A DNA stretch of 64,000 nt from an uncultured Acidobacteriota bacterium (lineage in GTDB: Bacteria; Acidobacteriota; Polarisedimenticolia; J045): the NCBI GenBank assembly GCA_964420365.1, contig CAYQTA010000077.1, forward strand, positions 13,070 to 77,069. Direction: 5' to 3'. Both the position numbers and the translations under genes were made by a program. Shown here one piece after another: positions 52,577 through 59,043 of this stretch; the stretch's first letter is position 1; each line of letters begins with the position of its first letter. The notes below the pieces were generated by a model. The model saw nothing but the letters and a program-made list of their open reading frames with translations, was not told the DNA's origin and did no database searches.

Positions 52577-53497
52577 ATGCGTACTCGACGCTCCGCGAAG
52601 GTACGGGCCCACCGCATCCTGCTGGTCCTCGTGGCCCTGGTCCTCCTCGCCGCGTGTGACGATCCCACCGAGCTCTCCACGAAGGAGAAGGGGATCGCGG
52701 TCGGCGCGGTCGCGACCTCCATCTGCTGGGACCAGGACACCGGGCTCGCGACCACCCAGGTGATCGCCACCGTGTTCGGCAAGGACGGCAGCGTCGCGAC
52801 CGGCACGAAGGTCCGCTTCGAGGCGGACTGCCCGGAGGCGACGCTCGATCCCGTCGAGGCCGCGACCGACCAGGCGGGCCGTGCGATCGTCGAGCTCTCC
52901 ACGCCTCGCCCGTCGTCCGACCAGGTGACGGTGACGGGGTTCCTCCCCGACGGCCGCTCCGACGACGTGACGATCCGCGTCCCGGCCCCTCCTTTCCTGC
53001 AGTTCACGCCCGAGACGTTCCAGCCCAAGGTCGGGGAGGAGTTCTACCTCCACTGGTACGTCACGGCCCCCTGCAACCTCAGTCGACTGACGGCGGAGCT
53101 CACCTGGAACCCGGAGGTCCTCGAGTACGTGCCCGGCGAGTGGGAAGAGGGAGGGATCCTGAACCAGCTGGTCTCGAGCAACGGCGGGGACGCGGGCGAC
53201 ACGGACGAGGACGGCTCTGCCGGGGGAGAGGACAGGATCCCGACGGTGGTCGAGGAAAGCTGGGCGGACGGGTGGCTGCGGATGACCTACCGTCGCGACG
53301 ACACTCCACGCACCGGCATCTCCGCCACCGGCTCCTACATCCGGATCAAGTTCCGGGCGATCGGCACCGGTGACGCGGAGATGGCCGCGCCCTTCGTCGA
53401 ACTGGCGCCACCGGACGACCGGCCCTTCGACATGACCGACCACTGGGCCGTCCCGGCGATCACCGTCGTCGCGGCGGACGAGGACGGGGGGAAGTGA
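52577..53497 (+). CDS. lipoprotein with Ig-like and cohesin-like beta domains
   Basis: ATG after AAGGAA; lipobox LLAAC; beta-rich body; alternative GTG start at 52556. Confidence 0.55.
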   Translation: MRTRRSAKVRAHRILLVLVALVLLAACDDPTELSTKEKGIAVGAVATSICWDQDTGLATTQVIATVFGKDGSVATGTKVRFEADCPEATLDPVEAATDQAGRAIVELSTPRPSSDQVTVTGFLPDGRSDDVTIRVPAPPFLQFTPETFQPKVGEEFYLHWYVTAPCNLSRLTAELTWNPEVLEYVPGEWEEGGILNQLVSSNGGDAGDTDEDGSAGGEDRIPTVVEESWADGWLRMTYRRDDTPRTGISATGSYIRIKFRAIGTGDAEMAAPFVELAPPDDRPFDMTDHWAVPAITVVAADEDGGK

Positions 53498-54309
53498 GCA
53501 CCGGGACACCGGATCCCGCCCCCGCGGAACCGGGGTCCCTTCCCCGGGAGTGGCGGGGGATCACCGTCGGGGAGATCCTGCGTCATCCCCTCCCCTACCA
53601 GCGTCACAGTCTCCTCAACCGGCTGATCGCGCGGACGGTGGTGCTGGCCTTCCGCCGGAGCGTCCTGGCGATCCACGGCCTCGACCGGATCGGCGTCGAG
53701 CACGACCCCTTCATCCTCGTGATGAACCACAACCAGTGGCAGGAGGCGGTGATCCTGCCGACCCTCCTCATCTTCCACCGGGGCGGCAAGCTGATCCACT
53801 TCGTCTCCGACTGGAACTTCCAGCTGATCCCCGTCGCGCGCACGATCCTGCGCCGCAGCGAGGTGATCACGATCGTCGCCAAGCCGGCCCGGCCCGCGTT
53901 CCTCAACGTGTTTCGCCCCCTGTTCGAGCAGGAAACCTCCGCATGGACCCGCGCCCGGGAGAAGCTGCTCGCCGGCGCGTCGGTGGGGATCTTCCCGGAG
54001 GGGACGATCAACCGGGACCCGGAACGGCTGCTCCCGGGCCACCCCCGGGCCGCCCAGGTGAGCCTCCAGACCGGGACGCCCATCCTCCCGGCCGGGATCA
54101 CCTTCCCGCGGCTTCCCCCGGGAAGGCGGATCCCCAACGGGGAGCCCTTCGAGGTGACGATCGGCGAGCCGCTGGTCCCGCCCCGGCCGGCCCGGGCGGG
54201 GCGGCCCTCGCTGGACGAGGTCCGGGCATGGCATCATGAGGTGATGAGCCGGCTCGCGGAGCTGTGCGGCAAGCGCTGGGACCCGCGCCCGGCGAGGAGG
54301 GAGCGATGA
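53494..54309 (+). CDS. lysophospholipid acyltransferase (PlsC/LPLAT family, OlsA-like)
   Basis: GTG overlapping upstream TGA; acyltransferase motif region FILVMNHNQWQEAV and FPEGTINRD (HX4-acidic and PEGT boxes). Confidence 0.7.
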   Translation: MSTGTPDPAPAEPGSLPREWRGITVGEILRHPLPYQRHSLLNRLIARTVVLAFRRSVLAIHGLDRIGVEHDPFILVMNHNQWQEAVILPTLLIFHRGGKLIHFVSDWNFQLIPVARTILRRSEVITIVAKPARPAFLNVFRPLFEQETSAWTRAREKLLAGASVGIFPEGTINRDPERLLPGHPRAAQVSLQTGTPILPAGITFPRLPPGRRIPNGEPFEVTIGEPLVPPRPARAGRPSLDEVRAWHHEVMSRLAELCGKRWDPRPARRER

Positions 54310-54962
54310 GCCTCAAGGACCGCCTCGTGGTCTTCCGCGTCGAGGACGAGGAGGGCCGGGAGAAGGCCCGCCAGGTCCTCCGGGCCACGTACCGGGACGA
54401 GAAGGGCTGGGTCCAGGAGGAGGACCGCCAGATCCCGCCCGAGGACCTCCAGCGGGACGACGTCTCCTGGTTCGTCGTCTGCGACGGAGACCGGCCGGTC
54501 GGCGTCCTGCGGGTCCTCTACGACCCGCCCCTCGAGCTGTACCGGGAATACGGGTTCGAGCTGACCGACACCGGGATCGACGTCGAGAAGTTCATCCGCG
54601 AGAACCGGATCGCCGAGATCGGGCGGTTCGCCGTCCTGCCGGAGTACCGGAAGCACGTGGTCGTGGTCGCCGCCCTGATGCGGGCGGCCAGCACCGAGAC
54701 GGTCGCCCGCGGCTACACGCATTACATCACGGACGTCTTCGAGGACGACCCTCACTCGCCCTACAAGTTCCACACCCGCGTGATGGGTTTCGTCCCGGTG
54801 GCAACCCACGAGGTCGGCGAGCTGAACTGCCGGAGCCGGCGGATCACGCTGATCCTCGACCTCCGGGAGGCCTACCGGCGCCTCCGGAGGCAGGGCTCGT
54901 GGCTCTTCCGCTTCCTGACCGGTGATTGGCCGGAAGCGCTCCACCGCCGCCTGCTCGCCTGA
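54306..54962 (+). CDS. GNAT-fold N-acyltransferase of the N-acyl amino acid synthase / OlsB family (Acetyltransf_5-like)
   Basis: ATG after GAGGAGGGAG, overlaps upstream stop (ATGA); motifs LRATYRDEKGWVQEE (cf. LRxxVFxEExGW) and EIGRFAVLPEYR. Confidence 0.65.
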   Translation: MSLKDRLVVFRVEDEEGREKARQVLRATYRDEKGWVQEEDRQIPPEDLQRDDVSWFVVCDGDRPVGVLRVLYDPPLELYREYGFELTDTGIDVEKFIRENRIAEIGRFAVLPEYRKHVVVVAALMRAASTETVARGYTHYITDVFEDDPHSPYKFHTRVMGFVPVATHEVGELNCRSRRITLILDLREAYRRLRRQGSWLFRFLTGDWPEALHRRLLA

Positions 54963-55046: not shown

Positions 55047-55361
55047 ATGGGCAACCTGGAACAGATCCTGCGCGAGTTCGGTGAGACGGGTGTCGAGACG
55101 TCGTTCGAGGTCGACGGGAAGACGTACCGGGTCTTCGCCTACCCGAGCCCCGGACGCGGCCGGGCCCACGTCCGGTGGAACCTCTACGAGGTCGAGGAAG
55201 GCCGCGGAGAAAGGATCCGTGGCCTGACCTTCGGCATCGCCGACGGGGTCCGGGAGGCGATGAAGGACGTTCTCGAGGCGGCCCGGGAGCACGCCCGGTC
55301 GGGGAAGGCACCGGGTCCGGTCCGCCATCCCCTGACCTTCCGGCCGACGGCCCTCGACTGA
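55047..55361 (+). CDS. hypothetical small protein
   Basis: 104 aa, ATG after GGGAGAA, strong GC3 bias. Confidence 0.45.
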   Translation: MGNLEQILREFGETGVETSFEVDGKTYRVFAYPSPGRGRAHVRWNLYEVEEGRGERIRGLTFGIADGVREAMKDVLEAAREHARSGKAPGPVRHPLTFRPTALD

Positions 55362-55385
55362 GACGGGACCCGGAGGGGAACGCGA

Positions 55386-55410
55386 AAGGGGCGCCCGCGG
55401 GCGCCCCTTC
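55386..55410. terminator. bidirectional intrinsic-terminator-like hairpin between convergent genes
   Basis: Perfect stem AAGGGGCGCCC-GCG-GGGCGCCCCTT followed by CCTTTCC. Confidence 0.45.
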
Positions 55411-55443
55411 CTTTCCGAACGCCGGGCAGGACCCGGCCCCGGA

Positions 55444-55758
55444 TCACTTGCCGAACAGGCCGGCGATCAGCTGGGCGGTGGCGTCGGAGATGACGACGTT
55501 GTCGCTGAGGGTGAAGCTGTCCTTCACCGCCTGCAGGCCGGTGCCGATCCCGTTGGCGTCGAACATGCTGTTGGCGGCGTCCACGGCCCCCTGGACGTCC
55601 ACGTCCCCCGCGGTGCCGTCGTCGTTCACGCTGACGAACTGGTTGAAGAGATCCCCGAGCTGGCTGTCGGTCTGCGCCAGGCCCTGGAGGAAGCTGAACA
55701 GGCCGACACCCGGGGCGATGCGGTTCTCGAGCTCCTGGACCTTCAGCTTACGGCTCAT
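55444..55758 (-). CDS. small Gly/Ala/Asp-rich Cys-free protein (104 aa), candidate exported peptide / bacteriocin-like precursor
   Basis: ATG at 55756-55758 after GGAGGAG; charged N-terminus MSRKLKVQELENRIAPG then Gly/Ala/Asp/Ser-rich Cys-free body; C-terminus IGTGLQAV...AQLIAGLFGK; 283-bp leader to upstream gene. Confidence 0.5.
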   Translation of the reverse strand: MSRKLKVQELENRIAPGVGLFSFLQGLAQTDSQLGDLFNQFVSVNDDGTAGDVDVQGAVDAANSMFDANGIGTGLQAVKDSFTLSDNVVISDATAQLIAGLFGK

Positions 55759-56041
55759 CGCACACTCTCCTCCGGCGGGCCCTTCGCCCGCCCTCGTTGT
55801 GGGGACCCGCGGTCCCCGAACTCTCTCTCCCCCGGCATCCGGACGGACGCCGGGACCCGACTCCCCCATGAGCAAGTACCGGGCCAACGGCGCGCATTCC
55901 GGGCCGGTATCCGGAGCCGTTCGCCGCGGCACGGAATCACCCGAACCGGTTCGGGACGGAGAGGCACGAGGGAAGCCGGTTTCCAGCGTCGTCGCGGCGG
56001 GCACGGAATCGGGGACGAGTGTGCGGAAACCGAACAGTCGC

Positions 56042-58558
56042 TCAGAGCAGGGACGGGTCCACGAGGCGCAGGAGACGCCGCCAGGCGAGGGCCGCGAGGG
56101 GCCGGCGACCACAGAGGATCTTGATCGCCCCGGTCATCCCCGGGCGCAGGTTCCCCCCGGGGTTCTCCACCGAGCAGCGGACCCGGAAGACCGCGCGGCC
56201 CAGGGGATCGGTCTCGGCGCGGGGAGCGATCTCGAGAACCTCTCCGGAGAAGGTCCGCGTCGGCCAGGCGGACAGGCGAACCTCGACGGGCAGCCCGGGA
56301 TGGACGTCCCCGATCTCGCTCTCCGGGACGACGGCCTCGGCGACCAGGTGACGCAGGTCCGCGATCTCGAGGACGAGGCCGCCCGCCGGGATCCTCTCCC
56401 CGATCTTCCCGTCTGGACGGGGCGTGACGACGACGCCTTCCGCGGGGGCGCGCAGGTCGCACGCCGCGAGCCGGCGCAGGATGTCGGCGGCCCGCGCCTC
56501 CAGCCGGGAGACCTCGGCGCGCGCGGCCGCGATCCGTTCCGGGCGGGCCCCCCGCTCGAGGAGACGCGCCTCGTCGAGGGCGGCCCGGAGGACCCCTTCC
56601 TTGATCTTCAGCTCCTTCGTCACCTGCTCGTAGAGGTCGGCGGGAACCAGCCCCTCTTCCCGCAGGCGGCGCAGTCGCTCGTGGCGGGCCCTGAGGTGAT
56701 CCACCTCGGCCCGGGCGGCCCGCACCTTCTCCCGAGCCTGGCGGACGCGCTCCTTCTCCGGGCCGTCGAGCAGGAGGGAGAGATCGGCCCGCGCCCGCTC
56801 CACCTCCGAGCGGGTCATCGCGAGCTGGGCGAGGAGGTCGCTCCGGTCGAGCCGGGCGACCACCTGGCCGGCGGCCACCCGCTCCCCCTCGCGCACCAGG
56901 ACCTCCGCCAGGTTCCCGGCGATCTCGGGACGGACCGCCACGCGGCTGCCCGCCTCGAGGACCACCTGTCCGCCGACCTTGAGCGGCCACGGAAGGGCGA
57001 GAACGAGGCCGGCGACGACGATCACGGCCCCCGCCGTGGCGAGCCGCGCCGGGGTCAGCCGCGTGATCGCCCGCCCGAGGGCCCGCGCGAGGCCGAGGAA
57101 CGGGCGGCGGCCGAGCCAGAGGAGGAGCGCCGCGAGCCCGAGGGGCCCCCACAGCCCCGCCACGGCGGTCGAGAGGTTGAACGCCAGGTGCCCGAGAATG
57201 GCGAAGATCCCGAGGATGTACACCGTGGAGAGGGCGCCGTACACGGCGAGGAAGGCGCGCGCCCGCGGGGCGAGGGGCGGTGCCTCCACCCGGCGCCCGA
57301 AGAGGCGACCGATCCCCCGGGCGATCGAGGCGAGGGCGGTGGCCCGCAGGTTCGGGATCCCCGAGAGATCCGACAGGACGTAGTACCCGTCGAGCCGCAG
57401 CAGGGGGTTCAGGTTCATCAGGACGCCCGCGCCGGACGCGGCCGCGGCGACGAACGCCAGCACCTTCCCGGTCCCGGGCGCGAGGAAGCGCCAGAGGTGC
57501 AGGGCGGTGACCGCCACGCCCAGGTCGAACATCGGGCCCGCCAGGCTGACGAGCACCCGGTGCCGGCGGCGCCGGAAGAGCCAGGCGTCGGACACGTCGA
57601 CGTAGAGGGCGGGCATCACGAAGAAGATCAGGAGGAAACCGAGTTCCGGAACGCGCCCCCCGTAGTGCTTGCAGGTCAGGCCGTGGGCGAACTCGTGCAG
57701 GGCGGTGAGGACGATCGCCGCCAGGAGGAACCCGCCCAGCCAGCCGCCGGTCGCCAGGTGGGGCAGGTGGGCGAGCAGCTCCGCCCGGTGCGTGACCGCG
57801 ATCCAGGCGGCGGACGCGAGGGCGGCCACGTAGGCGGCCACGAAGCCGGTGGTCCACAGGAAACGGACCCGCGGCTCGAGGCGCGTGAAGAGCCGGTCCG
57901 GGTCGAAGAGGGGCACCTGGAGGTAGAACAGGCTGCGCCGCCGCCGCGGCCGCCGCTGGCGTTTCGCCTCTTCCGCGGCGGCCTGGGCGCCCGCCCGGAC
58001 CAGCACGCCCCGGAGGGCCGCCGCCCGCTGGTTGGCCGGGTTGTCGACGAGAATCTCGTCGAGGGCGCGGAGGGCCGCCCGGAAACGTCCCTGGCGAAGC
58101 AGGTCGACGGCTTCGTCGAACTTCTCCGCCTCCCTCTGCCGCCGCTCGTCCCGCGTGACGCCGGGCGGGAGAGGATCGGTGGCGCGCCGCACCCGGAAGC
58201 CTCCCTGCTCCAGGGTCGCCAGGACGCGCGCTCCCAGGGCGGGCGCGAGGGCGGGAAGGCGGATCTCCCCGTCGTCCTCCACGAGCCCCTTCTCGCGCAG
58301 GTTGTCGAGGAATTCCTCGATCTCGTCGAGGGTCAGTTCCTCGCCGAACCGGACCGCCAGCTCCACCTGGATGTCGACCGGCGTGTGTTCACCGTCCAGC
58401 AGCTCGAGGATCGCTCCCTCGAGCTCGTCGAAGCGGAAGTACCGCCGGGCCCGGGGATCCTTGACGATCCGGCCCCGGCCGGTCTCCCCGTCCGGCAGCA
58501 CGACCAGCCCCGCCCGCAGGCGCGGGGGTGCCACGCTCGCAATGCCCTCGGAACCCAT
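56042..58558 (-). CDS. three-module protein: PqqD-like peptide-binding (RRE) domain + HExxH intramembrane zinc metalloprotease (M50/S2P-like) + HlyD-family periplasmic adaptor domain
   Basis: N-terminus VVLPDGETGRGRIVKDPRARRYFRFDELEGAILELLDGEHTPVDIQVELAVRFGEELTLDEIEEFLDNLREKGLV (PqqD-like); TM region with LTALHEFAHGLTCKHYGG (HExxH in membrane) and several more TM helices; C-terminal 330 aa with lipoyl-like, coiled-coil and beta-barrel HlyD segments; ATG after GGGAGAGG (alternative GTG 102 nt upstream). Confidence 0.75.
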   Translation of the reverse strand: MGSEGIASVAPPRLRAGLVVLPDGETGRGRIVKDPRARRYFRFDELEGAILELLDGEHTPVDIQVELAVRFGEELTLDEIEEFLDNLREKGLVEDDGEIRLPALAPALGARVLATLEQGGFRVRRATDPLPPGVTRDERRQREAEKFDEAVDLLRQGRFRAALRALDEILVDNPANQRAAALRGVLVRAGAQAAAEEAKRQRRPRRRRSLFYLQVPLFDPDRLFTRLEPRVRFLWTTGFVAAYVAALASAAWIAVTHRAELLAHLPHLATGGWLGGFLLAAIVLTALHEFAHGLTCKHYGGRVPELGFLLIFFVMPALYVDVSDAWLFRRRRHRVLVSLAGPMFDLGVAVTALHLWRFLAPGTGKVLAFVAAAASGAGVLMNLNPLLRLDGYYVLSDLSGIPNLRATALASIARGIGRLFGRRVEAPPLAPRARAFLAVYGALSTVYILGIFAILGHLAFNLSTAVAGLWGPLGLAALLLWLGRRPFLGLARALGRAITRLTPARLATAGAVIVVAGLVLALPWPLKVGGQVVLEAGSRVAVRPEIAGNLAEVLVREGERVAAGQVVARLDRSDLLAQLAMTRSEVERARADLSLLLDGPEKERVRQAREKVRAARAEVDHLRARHERLRRLREEGLVPADLYEQVTKELKIKEGVLRAALDEARLLERGARPERIAAARAEVSRLEARAADILRRLAACDLRAPAEGVVVTPRPDGKIGERIPAGGLVLEIADLRHLVAEAVVPESEIGDVHPGLPVEVRLSAWPTRTFSGEVLEIAPRAETDPLGRAVFRVRCSVENPGGNLRPGMTGAIKILCGRRPLAALAWRRLLRLVDPSLL

Positions 58559-58665
58559 CGCCTCTCCCGGGGGGCGCACCCCGGGCGTCCCGGCGGGCAC
58601 CGGGACGCGGGGAACCCCTGCGGCAAAGGTGGGTCCGGGGCGGGCGCCCGGCAAGAGCACGCGGG

Positions 58666-59043
58666 CTAGTCGGCGGAACCGTCCTCGTCATCCTCTTCCG
58701 GCTCGTCGTCCGTGGTCGAGGTGACGACGGCCCGGACGAGCACGAGGGTCCCGGAGTCGAGGACCCGGACCTCGGCGTCCTCGACGACGTCCCCCTCGAA
58801 GAGATCGTCGAGGATCGCGTCCTCCTCGCCGTCCAGCACGATGACCGCGTCCTCGGGGACCTCGATCACCAGGTCCCCCCGGGCCGGATCCCGGAGGGTC
58901 AGGGTCTCCTCGTCCAGGTCCACCTCGAGGATCGTGCCGGAGACGTGGGCCACGGTCGCGGCCCGGATCGCCGGCAGGGTCACGAGCAGGAGGAGGCACG
59001 AAATCGTCCACGTCGGGAGGCGCCAACCGGTCCGCATCGTCAT
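58666..59043 (-). CDS. small secreted acidic protein
   Basis: ATG after GGAGGAA; signal peptide MTMRTGWRLPTWTISCLLLLVTLPAIRAATVA; mature part highly acidic (Asp/Glu-rich tail). Confidence 0.5.
   Translation of the reverse strand: MTMRTGWRLPTWTISCLLLLVTLPAIRAATVAHVSGTILEVDLDEETLTLRDPARGDLVIEVPEDAVIVLDGEEDAILDDLFEGDVVEDAEVRVLDSGTLVLVRAVVTSTTDDEPEEDDEDGSAD

Follow-up and report, generated by a model that had tools for sequence, protein, structure and literature searches.

A candidate two-gene module for leader-dependent maturation and export in an uncultured Acidobacteriota bacterium, centred on a fusion of an RRE, a site-2-type protease and an HlyD-type adaptor

The stretch of DNA analyzed here (64 kb, the window) comes from an uncultured Acidobacteriota bacterium and carries a gene for an 838-aa fusion protein directly upstream of a gene for a small, Cys-free protein. 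We consider it fairly probable that the two genes form a leader-dependent maturation and export module. On this reading, the N-terminal RRE of the fusion would bind the 16-residue leader of the small protein, MSRKLKVQELENRIAP, in the cytoplasm, and a site-2-type zinc metalloprotease, with its active site near the cytoplasmic face, would cut after Pro16. An HlyD/MacA-type adaptor, presumably as an oligomer, would then link the complex to a TolC-like outer-membrane channel, through which the 88-aa acidic core would leave the cell. The recurrence of this leader beside the fusion in many phyla points to an undescribed leader-dependent system related to the daptide leader peptidases. The preliminary description of the locus had arrived at a similar interpretation, which was supported as a whole, and every domain that it proposed was borne out by the searches reported below.

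Three co-directional ORFs occupy the minus strand between 55444 and 59043, as had been described:

58666-59043, minus strand: 125-aa protein, N-terminus resembling a signal peptide, acidic body
56042-58558, minus strand: fusion gene, 838 aa (RRE, site-2 protease and HlyD-type adaptor)
55444-55758, minus strand: small-protein gene, 104 aa, no Cys, 12 Gly, 11 Ala and 11 Asp

The ATG of the fusion is preceded by GGGAGAGG. GC contents at codon positions 1/2/3 were 0.80/0.49/0.93 for the fusion, 0.76/0.40/0.94 for the gene of the 125-aa protein and 0.65/0.38/0.97 for the small ORF. In the untranslated spacer between the fusion and the small gene, which measures exactly 283 bp (55759-56041), the values in the same frame were 0.70/0.72/0.71. 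The small ORF is coding, with conserved homologues in addition to its GC3 signal, and the spacer, with its flat values, is non-coding.

The domains and motifs of the fusion were located as follows:

58280-58525, minus strand: N-terminal RRE (PqqD-like) domain, residues 12-93, beta3-alpha3 winged-helix topology
57953-58243, minus strand: helical TPR-like insert, residues 106-202 (alignment, Pfam TPR_16, AF2)
56996-57898, minus strand: polytopic site-2-protease (M50-like) membrane domain, residues 221-521 (NCBIfam, hydropathy, AF2)
57683-57697, minus strand: HExxH zinc/catalytic motif H288 E289 F A H292, in helix 270-298 (alignments)
57386-57415, minus strand: second site-2-protease motif N382-L-N-P-L-L-R-L-D390-G391, its Asp the third metal ligand (86-sequence alignment)
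56045-56992, minus strand: periplasmic HlyD/MacA/EmrA-type adaptor, residues 523-838, with lipoyl, alpha-hairpin and beta-barrel parts (Pfam, NCBIfam, Foldseek, PDB profiles)

Over residues 34-93 the fusion matched Pfam PqqD with 24.8 bits against a gathering score of 23.4, and PDB-profile searches returned the lasso RREs TfuB1 and TbiB1 as well as PqqD. The best curated match of the protein was NCBIfam daptide_HExxH (NF041824; 190.5 bits, E 4.9e-56, residues 183-484), a score below the equivalog cut-off of 300, while Pfam Peptidase_M50 stayed at 21.5 bits, below its cut-off of 27.2. The active-site motifs of the protease are intact: the HExxH within LHEFAHG (residues 287-293) is invariant in alignments of 21 and of 86 homologues, and in the latter N382, P385, D390 and G391 are invariant and N384 and L386 are kept in at least 90%. 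The whole-fusion AF2 model (mean pLDDT 89.3) places a beta-hairpin at 306-320 in the protease domain and is helical over residues 106-202. The latter stretch, which matches Pfam TPR_16 weakly (E 0.005), is confined in the alignment to sequences at least 51% identical to the fusion of the window, and was found only in the acidobacterial subfamily that bears the 104-aa type of cargo. Hydropathy, loop charges and AF2 helices together predict about seven transmembrane helices with the N-terminus inside and the C-terminus outside, an arrangement that would turn the RRE and the active site towards the cytoplasm and place the adaptor in the periplasm.

The C-terminal part of the fusion was matched by HlyD_D23 (75 bits), HlyD_3 (66 bits) and TIGR01730 RND_mfp (115 bits, above the cut-off of 94.9), by MacA, EmrA and AcrA in Foldseek (E 1e-17 to 1e-13), and by EmrA (2e-29) and HlyD 8dck (4e-25) in a PDB profile search. 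The adaptor is complete, and its 316 residues have the fold and domain order of the tripartite-pump adaptors MacA, EmrA and HlyD. It also shares their R-x3-L-x6-S type of hairpin tip, which reads R628-x3-L632-x6-P639 in the window; among the adaptors compared, R was kept in 59 of 73 and L in 71 of 73, the third position being S, A or P. In the fusion of the window this position is Pro, whereas Ser is usual in adaptors that bind TolC. MacA, EmrA and HlyD pair with a separate ABC, MFS or RND pump, whereas here the adaptor is covalently joined to a protease. We can only infer the export step, because we know of no precedent for an HlyD-type adaptor without a pump partner.

The small protein begins with the conserved N-terminus KLKVQELENRIAP and was divided into two parts:

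55711-55758, minus strand: predicted leader peptide MSRKLKVQELENRIAP, residues 1-16 (family alignment, cross-phylum motif, daptide register)
55447-55710, minus strand: predicted mature core, residues 17-104, 88 aa, 8.9 kDa, pI 4.05, no Cys

Its family is small: out of 1.84 billion representatives, no more than 12 clusters at 50% identity belong to it, and 11 sequences were read, including one spurious repeat protein and one chimera. The recognition motif L5-x-V-x-x-L10-E11-x-R13-I14-A15-P16 is invariant in this family, and KL+VQELENRIAP is kept in all nine homologue clusters (9/9). When the window was scanned with the leader profile, the small gene was the one match (29 bits; next best 5.6 bits). 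AF2 modelled the small protein with low confidence (pLDDT 61).

The leader of daptides carries the motif ELExMEAP with Pro at position -1; the enzyme that cuts it off, MpaP, unites an RRE and a site-2 protease in one chain (bioRxiv 10.1101/2023.03.08.531785). The motif found here, ELExRIAP, falls into register with it at E(-8) L(-7) E(-6) x x x A(-2) P(-1). On account of this homology and of the Pro at -1, the leader is predicted to be cleaved after Pro16 (AP|G), not after APG as the preliminary description had suggested. Like the fusion, the daptide leader peptidase MpaP/DapP (NF041824) consists of an N-terminal RRE and an intramembrane HExxH site-2 protease. It is the closest characterized relative, homologous over the RRE and site-2-protease half, and to this extent the architecture, previously held not to be assignable to any described system, has a counterpart. 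The differences are nevertheless considerable. MpaP/DapP has no adaptor, whereas the fusion ends in one of about 316 residues; the DapB/C/D/M tailoring genes and ABC exporters of daptide clusters were not found linked to the present module; daptide cores have an invariant C-terminal Thr and an aliphatic-rich helix, both missing from the cores found here, which range from 6 to more than 1,400 aa; and daptides occur in Actinomycetota and Bacillota, whereas the hosts of the fusion are diderm phyla.

The association of leader and enzyme extends over many phyla. Small and large ORFs next to homologous fusions bear the motif Φx[IVL]xxLExRIAP, set 2-22 residues behind an ATG, in Acidobacteriota, Gemmatimonadota, Planctomycetota, Verrucomicrobiota, Zixibacteria, Chloroflexota and Bdellovibrionota. 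When 2.1 million residues translated in six frames were searched with the motif as a regular expression, 49 sites were found, among which 48 lay on the strand of the fusion; 46 of the latter were counted 2-22 residues after an ATG, and three are also given as having no upstream ATG. Forty-four of the fusion-strand sites were no more than about 2.5 kb from the fusion gene and four (in L020 and L042) were 3.6-5 kb away. The leader profile had 40 matches on the fusion strand versus 1 on the opposite strand, and it matched 20 of the 46 loci with an alignable N-terminal RRE region versus 4 of the 34 loci without. Conservation of the leader stops exactly at the Pro; the cores beyond it include G/N/S/P-rich peptides, cores of 6-9 aa, Cys-rich cores, multi-core repeats and low-complexity repeat proteins of more than 800 aa, and the relatives often carry several precursor genes in one locus. 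A reciprocal search of 5.8 billion proteins with the leader profile found new leader-bearing proteins, and in both contexts examined the neighbour was a protein of 806 or 816 aa with HlyD-type beta-barrel domains, which from its length and these domains, and with no PqqD or M50 match recorded, would be a fusion homologue. Taken with the recurrence of the motif, this return from leader to fusion favors the earlier proposal that the small protein is the substrate.

Within the acidobacterial subfamily, the fusion lies directly upstream of the small-protein homologue in every contig that is long enough (L002-L004, L007, L010-L013, L096 and L098), in answer to the doubt raised beforehand that the two might never co-occur. 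In L001 the fusion copy upstream of the small gene is frameshifted, and in L097 the fusion has no adjoining cargo gene. Much of the surrounding synteny is also kept in this subfamily, so that adjacency counts for less there than the association across phyla.

The spacer, previously described as untranslated, and the downstream flank of the small gene were found to carry the following elements:

56020-56036, minus strand: conserved, UAS-like TGT-N11-ACA element, about 135 nt upstream of the promoter
55872-55886, minus strand: sigma-54-type promoter TGGCCCGGTACTTGC, -24 GG and -12 GC, 113 nt upstream of the small-gene ATG
55765-55773, minus strand: ribosome-binding site of the small gene, GGAGGAGAG, 7-15 nt upstream of the ATG
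55384-55411, minus strand: GC-rich 12-bp hairpin followed by UUUCGCGUU, RNA fold -47 kcal/mol, z -3.2

The sigma-54 pattern matched once in the window, with 0.12 matches expected, and the element is conserved 106-116 nt 5' of the ATG in each of the six further lineages with cargo for which the spacer was examined. We propose, on the basis of these sequence elements, that the small gene is transcribed separately from its own sigma-54 promoter. The TGT-N11-ACA element, aligned in the spacers of five lineages with the consensus cTGTtc..tTtCctgAACAC, may by analogy be the upstream site for a sigma-54 activator. The strong ribosome-binding site noted earlier was confirmed. The hairpin, also noted earlier, is probably the terminator of the small gene as judged by its folding energy, although a consensus terminator scan of the minus strand called none and missed it because its T-run is short.

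A Pfam scan of ten neighbouring genes (43.8-48.1, 50.5-55.4 and 59.9-62.5 kb) revealed no ABC transporter or T1SS component, in agreement with the original observation, and no RiPP maturase. No inner-membrane transporter (ABC, MFS or RND) was found adjoining the module in the window, nor as a conserved neighbour of the fusion across 80 distant loci. In a tblastn search of the window with TolC-like, sigma-54-activator, STAS and HD-GYP-like representatives, neither a TolC-like nor a sigma-54-activator gene was found.

The commonest neighbours of the fusion in the distant loci were regulatory genes, encoding sigma-54 activators with receiver domains (sigma-54 activator genes in 29 of the 80 loci), STAS and HD-GYP proteins. 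Together with the predicted cytoplasmic position of the active site and RRE and the lack of a linked transporter gene, they speak for regulated proteolysis without export, in which the site-2 protease would activate a cytoplasmic or membrane protein and the HlyD-like domain would serve as a periplasmic scaffold or sensor; SpoIVFB, which removes the N-terminal pro-sequence of pro-sigma-K, is a precedent. We nevertheless regard this as quite unlikely, given that the cargo cores are highly diverse and extracellular-looking, that the adaptor is whole, with the TolC-tip pattern retained, that TolC-like OEP genes neighbour the fusion in 11 of the 80 loci, and that the system was found in diderm phyla only, its monoderm daptide cousin being without an adaptor. 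It also seems unlikely that the locus is a true RiPP pathway, in which enzymes encoded elsewhere, or the FeeM-like synthase and the acyltransferase encoded nearby, would chemically modify the core before it is cleaved and the fusion would act only as the final leader peptidase and exporter. An RRE is characteristic of RiPP pathways, the closest relative acts on a modified RiPP, and in several acidobacterial lineages genes for a FeeM-like GNAT (acyl-amino-acid synthase) and for an acyltransferase of the PlsC type occur in synteny with the module. However, this pair is missing beside the modules of L003 and L007, no recurrent maturase (radical SAM, YcaO, LanM or daptide B/C/D/M) was found across the 80 loci or any among the ten scanned genes of the window, the 88-aa core and other cargos of more than 800 aa are atypical of RiPP cores, and the C-terminal Thr is absent.

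The separate promoter, the 283-bp spacer, the lineage with a fusion and no small gene (L097) and the broadly kept local synteny could also suggest that the two genes are neighbours by coincidence, the fusion being a generic efflux adaptor/protease and the small gene an unrelated, sigma-54-regulated one. This is highly improbable and already contradicted by the leader motif accompanying the fusion in at least seven phyla, 40 times on its strand against once on the other, by the leader-only search that leads back to the fusion, by a register that matches the daptide leader, whose peptidase is homologous, and by the small gene being the sole leader-profile match in the window.

The proposed maturation and export module invites comparison with two further known systems. 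Bacteriocins and microcins with a double-glycine leader, such as colicin V with CvaAB-TolC, are exported by a C39-peptidase ABC transporter together with an HlyD-type adaptor and TolC. In their mode of action, the two share a short leader at the N-terminus of a peptide or small protein that is otherwise left unmodified, an HlyD-family adaptor and, as proposed here, leader removal coupled to export. The GG/GA cleavage motif is missing here, the leader ending in AP, and no C39 peptidase or ABC ATPase was found; instead, an RRE would recognize the leader and a zinc intramembrane protease would cleave it. The likeness to class II bacteriocins or microcins noted earlier accordingly holds in function only, the small protein having no double-glycine leader and an acidic core. 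YydH/LiaK, which matures the epipeptides of yydFGHIJ-type clusters, is likewise an M50 membrane metalloprotease dedicated to a ribosomal peptide, as proposed for the fusion, which its model NF058609 matched weakly (40.7 bits, cut-off 225); YydH/LiaK has neither RRE nor adaptor, and the radical-SAM epimerase and ABC transporter of its clusters are absent here.

The 125-aa protein matched no Pfam or NCBIfam family. In L010, L096 and L097 a homologue of it precedes the fusion, but none does so in L003 and L007, so that its membership of the module is uncertain and it does not belong there in every lineage. One further gene converges on the small gene:

55047-55361, plus strand: 104-aa ORF of unassigned function, no Pfam family

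This ORF may or may not belong to the module. Copies with 49-54% identity occupy the equivalent place in L003, L004 and L007, and opposite-strand genes of 104 aa, matched by position and length only, were called there in L096 and L097.

The preliminary description had placed three co-directional minus-strand genes at 55444-59043 of the window, with an untranslated spacer of 283 bp between the second and the third, and both the genes and the exact length of the spacer were recovered. The features of this region are as follows.

Features of the three-gene region (window coordinates)
58666-59043, minus strand: sec125, 125 aa, acidic in its body and resembling a signal peptide at its N-terminus
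56042-58558, minus strand: fusion gene, 838 aa
56020-56036, minus strand: TGT-N11-ACA element, about 135 nt upstream of the sigma-54-type promoter, conserved in the spacers of five lineages
55872-55886, minus strand: sigma-54-type promoter TGGCCCGGTACTTGC (TGGCCCG-N4-TTGC), in the spacer
55444-55758, minus strand: small gene, 104 aa, Cys-free, with GGAGGAGAG just upstream
55047-55361, plus strand: 104-aa open reading frame (ORF) convergent with the small gene, no Pfam family

Codon-position GC was 0.65/0.38/0.97 for the small ORF and 0.70/0.72/0.71 for the spacer read in the same frame, and by this measure all three genes are coding. A GC-rich 12-bp hairpin lies 3' of the small gene, and a scan for sigma-70 and terminator consensus sequences gave nothing useful in window DNA of 73% GC. 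The sec125 protein has a conserved core, VSGxIxEVDLxxxTLTVxD...EVPxxAxIVLDGxxxAILDDLFEGDVVE, followed by an acidic tail, and could be assigned to no family. Its homologues were found upstream of the fusion gene in the related loci L010, L096 and L097 and were missing in L003 and L007; confinement to close relatives was ruled out, since the fusions of L096 and L097 are only 52-58% identical and also have it upstream.

The N-terminus of the fusion had been read as a PqqD-type RiPP recognition element (RRE), and this reading was borne out. Pfam PqqD (PF05402) matched residues 34-93 with 24.8 bits (gathering score 23.4), a family profile compared with the PDB matched TfuB1 (1.5e-5), TbiB1 (5.9e-4) and PqqD (7.6e-4), and the AlphaFold2 (AF2) model shows the three-stranded sheet and three-helix winged helix of an RRE fold. 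The model was built on an alignment of 86 sequences and has a mean pLDDT of 89.3.

Parts of the fusion protein in the AF2 model
residues 19-89: beta3-alpha3 domain
residues 106-202: helical insert
residues 221-521: helical membrane domain, with a beta-hairpin (306-320) after the HExxH helix
residues 523-838: lipoyl, alpha-hairpin and beta-barrel module

We propose that the RRE would bind the leader of the co-encoded precursor, the support for this pairing being the co-occurrence of leader and RRE. The insert at 106-202, which is TPR-like, is confined to the subfamily with folded-protein-sized cargo like the window's, and may, speculatively, help to handle that cargo.

The suggested HExxH intramembrane protease also stands. 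The motif (H288-E-F-A-H292) lies inside helix 270-298 and is invariant in 86 homologues, the second site-2 protease (S2P) motif, NxxPxxxxDG, which holds the third metal ligand, is present, and H288, E289, H292, N382, P385, D390 and G391 were invariant in alignments of 21 and 86 homologues. Pfam Peptidase_M50 (PF02163) at residues 277-424 scored 21.5 bits, under its gathering score of 27.2; the family being divergent, both motifs and the 190-bit daptide S2P match were taken as the grounds for M50 membership. This best NCBIfam match, NF041824 (daptide intramembrane metalloprotease), covered residues 183-484 (E 4.9e-56) with 190.5 bits against an equivalog cut-off of 300, so the fusion is homologous to the family and not an equivalog; the NCBIfam YydH/LiaK model gave 40.7 bits. 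Hydropathy and loop charges fit about seven transmembrane helices, N-terminus in and C-terminus out, a topology which would place the RRE and the protease active site in the cytoplasm and the adaptor in the periplasm.

The C-terminal third is a complete HlyD-type adaptor, as previously described, with lipoyl, alpha-hairpin and beta-barrel domains and matches over the curated thresholds of Pfam (HlyD_D23, 75.1 bits, cut-off 30; HlyD_3, 66.1 bits, cut-off 22.2; both at residues 700-809) and NCBIfam (TIGR01730 RND_mfp, 115 bits, cut-off 94.9). Foldseek matched the adaptor to MacA and EmrA at E of about 2e-17, and Foldseek and the PDB profile taken together matched this third to MacA, EmrA, AcrA, MexA, HlyD and LipC. 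The pattern R-x3-L-x6-S at the hairpin tip is known from TolC-docking adaptors. The tip of the window's fusion reads R628-x3-L632-x6-P639, with Pro at the place of Ser; across the family, R was found in 59 and L in 71 of 73 sequences, and the third position was S in 38, A in 25, P in 4 and T in 3.

A search of a 5.8-billion-protein collection identified nine clusters of small-protein homologues (47-97% identical, 93-104 aa), all of which start K-L-+-V/I-Q-E/N-L-E-N-R-I-A-P and end FG[KR]; with its third-position GC of 0.97, the small ORF is thus conserved and coding. An exhaustive profile search of 1.84 billion representatives yielded 12 clusters only, so the cargo family is rare. Eleven of their sequences were read, among which nine start with the same leader, P0177 is spurious (a repeat protein) and P0175 is a chimera. 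NCBIfam release 20 holds no model for the small protein, eight other precursors or sec125. The AF2 model of the small protein (pLDDT 61) is unreliable and too low in confidence for a fold search. The predicted core comprises 88 aa and is acidic, with a pI of 4.05. A Sec-type signal on the small protein was rejected because of acidic residues in the n-region and the lack of an AxA site; most cargos in other phyla have no hydrophobic stretch.

Wherever the contig was long enough, a fusion gene of 829-839 aa was found directly upstream of the small gene and on the same strand (L002, L003, L004, L007, L010-L013, L096 and L098), confirming the expected co-occurrence. L001, with just a 310-aa gene upstream, is no exception, since the fusion there is split by a frameshift. 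In L097, the locus of P0026, the fusion is present and no cargo gene adjoins it: at L097:4558-4830 only 274 bp separate the fusion gene from the convergent 104-aa ORF, the sigma-54-type element is missing as well, and the cargo appears to have been lost or moved. These Acidobacteriota also share synteny of OmpA, sec125, the convergent 104-aa ORF, DUF218, FeeM-like GNAT, PlsC, Big_1 and CCG oxidoreductase genes, and adjacency inside the acidobacterial subfamily is therefore only moderate evidence of a link.

Stronger evidence came from the predicted leader of the small protein (residues 1-16, MSRKLKVQELENRIAP). The fusion family comprised 139 clusters in a word-indexed search, and at least 591 relatives were confirmed in one scan of species-representative genomes, under generic annotations such as 'HlyD family efflux adaptor', 'PqqD family chaperone' and 'putative peptide zinc metalloprotease'. 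From this family we sampled 80 loci with fusions 24-42% identical to the window's, belonging to Zixibacteria, Acidobacteriota, Gemmatimonadota, Planctomycetota, Verrucomicrobiota, Chloroflexota, Betaproteobacteria and Bdellovibrionota/Oligoflexia. The small-protein HMM matched short ORFs beside these distant fusions through the N-terminus only (e.g. LKVEELEARIAPG, LRIEELEQRIAPG, LKIEELEERIAPT and FEIEELEERIAPS). The six-frame translations, 2.1 million residues in all, contained 49 matches to a regular expression of the motif, 48 of them on the strand of the fusion; 46 lie 2-22 residues after an ATG, three have no upstream ATG, 44 are within about 2.5 kb of the fusion gene and four (L020 and L042) are at 3.6-5 kb. 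A leader profile gave 40 matches on the fusion strand versus 1 on the opposite strand, and was matched in 20/46 loci whose RRE region aligns to the query versus 4/34 loci where it does not; in the 64-kb window it picked out the small gene alone (29 bits; next best 5.6 bits). In 33 leaders compared, L10, E11 and P16 are invariant, R13 and I14 are conserved in at least 90%, and conservation ends at the Pro. A reverse search of the 5.8-billion-protein collection with a leader-weighted profile added 38 new proteins; the full small protein was the first row of this profile, which still carried core columns, so leader-only matches are under-sampled. Two contexts of new proteins were fetched, and each adjoins a protein (806 or 816 aa) with HlyD-type barrel domains, which we infer from length and these domains alone to be a fusion homologue. 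The sharing of the leader beside the fusion across phyla is the decisive evidence for the proposed link between leader and enzyme.

The preliminary description could not assign the architecture to any described system, and in this respect it has to be corrected. Daptide clusters came to light through MpaP, an intramembrane site-2 protease with an RRE fused to its N-terminus, and their co-occurring precursors share the leader motif ELExMEAP, numbered in MpaA as E(-8) L(-7) D(-6) P(-5) M(-4) E(-3) A(-2) P(-1) (bioRxiv 10.1101/2023.03.08.531785), so that the daptide leader ends at Pro. Numbered in this register, the small protein has E(-8) L(-7) E(-6) N(-5) R(-4) I(-3) A(-2) P(-1). This register and the 190-bit match of the protease domain indicate that the enzyme-leader pair is homologous to the daptide pair, which in turn predicts cleavage between Pro16 and Gly17. 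Unlike daptides, nearly all members of the small-protein family end in FGK or FGR and have no C-terminal Thr, the tailoring genes DapB/DapC/DapD/DapM are absent among the ten window neighbours and none is recurrent in the 80 loci, and an HlyD adaptor is added while an ABC exporter is lacking. Daptides occur in monoderm Actinomycetota and Bacillota, whereas the adaptor-bearing fusions occur in diderm phyla, where an adaptor would fit the need to cross the outer membrane. Judged by its sequence, the window's module is not a daptide system. The suggested likeness to class II bacteriocins or microcins extends to function only: the leader ends in I-A-P and not in GG/GA, and no C39 peptidase domain was found in the fusion or the scanned neighbours. 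In open-access full text we found no description of the triple fusion or of an ELExRIAP leader, an absence that is no proof; the string 'ELEERIAP' occurred in unrelated mycology papers only, and neither M50 nor a fusion of this kind comes up in the graspetide and RRE-Finder papers. Already known, however, are the parts and the principle: leader peptidases guided by an RRE, and HlyD adaptors that take part in peptide export.

The sequences that follow the leader Pro are mutually unrelated, and the cargos fall into the types below.

Cargo types following the leader
G/N/S/P-rich peptides of 20-50 aa, with GNPGNEVSNGAKPQP recurring in three phyla
LLGYEGQPGNQG repeats
short Zixibacteria cores of 6-9 aa
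Cys-rich peptides and peptides with GGSSKK repeats, both from Planctomycetota
a 235-aa protein
very large low-complexity proteins (831, about 1,225 and about 1,490 aa) from Bdellovibrio, Oligoflexia and Planctomycetota, encoded 0.1-3 kb from the fusion gene at L080:472-2988, L065:9048-12737 and L066:8198-12682

The large cargos start with a Lys-rich stretch, KK..KKLE[ED]RIAP, and continue as [GSA]M.GGG..DPG, and the leader is thus not restricted to peptides. Many of the reverse-search proteins have a multi-core layout in which KLQIVKLEERIAP followed by KLATNHNETLVR is repeated 2-4 times. In P0130-P0156 and at L051:3730-4794, from 2 to more than 8 repeats of the leader motif LQIVKLEERIAP (ELxxEELEEVIAP in a Blastocatellia MAG) are each followed by a short core containing NHNETLV; these precursors have the look of a peptide family of their own, so far undescribed, that an enzyme of the same kind would serve.

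The spacer element TGGCCCGGTACTTGC has one mismatch to the sigma-54 consensus TGGCAC-N5-TTGC, and is the sole match to the pattern in the window against 0.12 expected. In the window, as in the six other cargo-bearing lineages examined, a sigma-54-type element precedes the ATG by 106-116 nt, and sigma-54-like promoters also precede the precursors in L021, L039 and L042. The -24 GG/-12 GC spacing and this conservation mark the element as a predicted sigma-54 promoter, and the TGT-N11-ACA element is a candidate activator binding site. The commonest neighbours in the 80 distant loci encode a response-regulator-type sigma-54 activator (29/80), a TolC-like outer membrane efflux protein (OEP; 11/80) and a STAS protein (8/80); no homologue of these three was found in the 64-kb window.

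In the best-supported model, the 104-aa precursor would be made under sigma-54 control, its leader would be captured by the cytoplasmic RRE and removed after Pro16 by the site-2-type protease, and the core would then leave by way of the fused adaptor and a TolC-like channel. The steps up to cleavage draw on homology and co-occurrence, and the export step on a complete adaptor and its tip motif, on the OEP genes linked in distant loci and on cargos that look secreted. Proteolytic activation without export, as in SpoIVFB, is less likely and fits poorly with both the diversity of the cargos and the presence of the adaptor. A modified RiPP whose tailoring enzymes are encoded elsewhere is possible. 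That the fusion and the small gene are merely coincidental neighbours, as the wider acidobacterial synteny might allow, is contradicted by the leader data across phyla.

For the export model, the main gap is the crossing of the inner membrane. The preliminary description had noted no adjacent ABC or type I secretion partner, and indeed no ABC gene occurs among the ten neighbours scanned with Pfam, no ABC transporter recurs as a neighbour in the 80 relative loci and no linked pump gene was found in any locus examined. Type I secretion uses a C-terminal signal and a dedicated ABC partner, whereas here the signal is N-terminal, predicted to be cleaved and not accompanied by an ABC gene. The crossing would fall either to a partner encoded elsewhere or to some new activity of the oligomeric fusion, which raises the question of whether an adaptor can function without a separately encoded pump. 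There is a real, if lesser, chance that the RRE-S2P-HlyD fusion is the core of an unrecognized, widespread and pump-independent secretion route of diderms, in which one polypeptide would read an N-terminal ELExRIAP leader, cut it off by intramembrane proteolysis and let the cargo out by a TolC-type channel, no dedicated ABC, MFS or RND pump being involved. If so, its cargos would include 6-residue peptides and multi-core NHNETLV peptides at one end and proteins beyond 1,000 residues at the other, and the window's 88-aa acidic protein, under sigma-54 control, would be one cargo class.

The reach of the finding is unusually broad. An abundant and generically annotated family is now tied to a defined substrate signal near the N-terminus, Φx[IVL]xxLExRIAP, and this rule picks out unannotated precursors and secreted proteins in little-studied phyla, namely Acidobacteriota, Planctomycetota, Gemmatimonadota, Zixibacteria and Verrucomicrobiota. 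The daptide leader-peptidase pairing is extended from monoderm RiPP clusters to diderms, where it is joined to an envelope-spanning adaptor. The GNPGNEVSNGAKPQP peptides, the LLGYEGQPGNQG repeats, the multi-core NHNETLV peptides and the Cys-rich planctomycete peptides are candidate bioactive or signalling peptides.

The ten window neighbours scanned encode an Fe-S/CCG oxidoreductase, a Big_1 lipoprotein, a PlsC acyltransferase, a FeeM-like GNAT, OmpA, a FecR protein, a GGDEF protein, MreB and two proteins without Pfam family. The PlsC-type acyltransferase gene overlaps that of the FeeM-like N-acyl amino acid synthase (GNAT) at 53494-54962 on the plus strand; the pair comes after the Big_1 lipoprotein and the Fe-S/CCG oxidoreductase, L010, L096 and L097 keep this block in synteny, and its content suggests synthesis of an N-acyl amino acid lipid. 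In L003, L004 and L007 the convergent 104-aa ORF has equivalently placed counterparts of 49-54% identity, and in L096 and L097 a 104-aa gene was called at this position (matched by place and length); the ORF may encode an accessory or immunity factor, or its retention may reflect nothing more than synteny. Many Terriglobia-type loci (L053, L068, L069, L071, L072, L074, L079, L081, L085, L087 and L089) have fusion-homologous matches of about 3.1-3.8 kb whose N-termini do not align with the RRE. As 127 fusion-like ORFs were counted in 79 loci, these matches suggest two M50-HlyD genes in tandem, or alternatively split or frameshifted ORFs.
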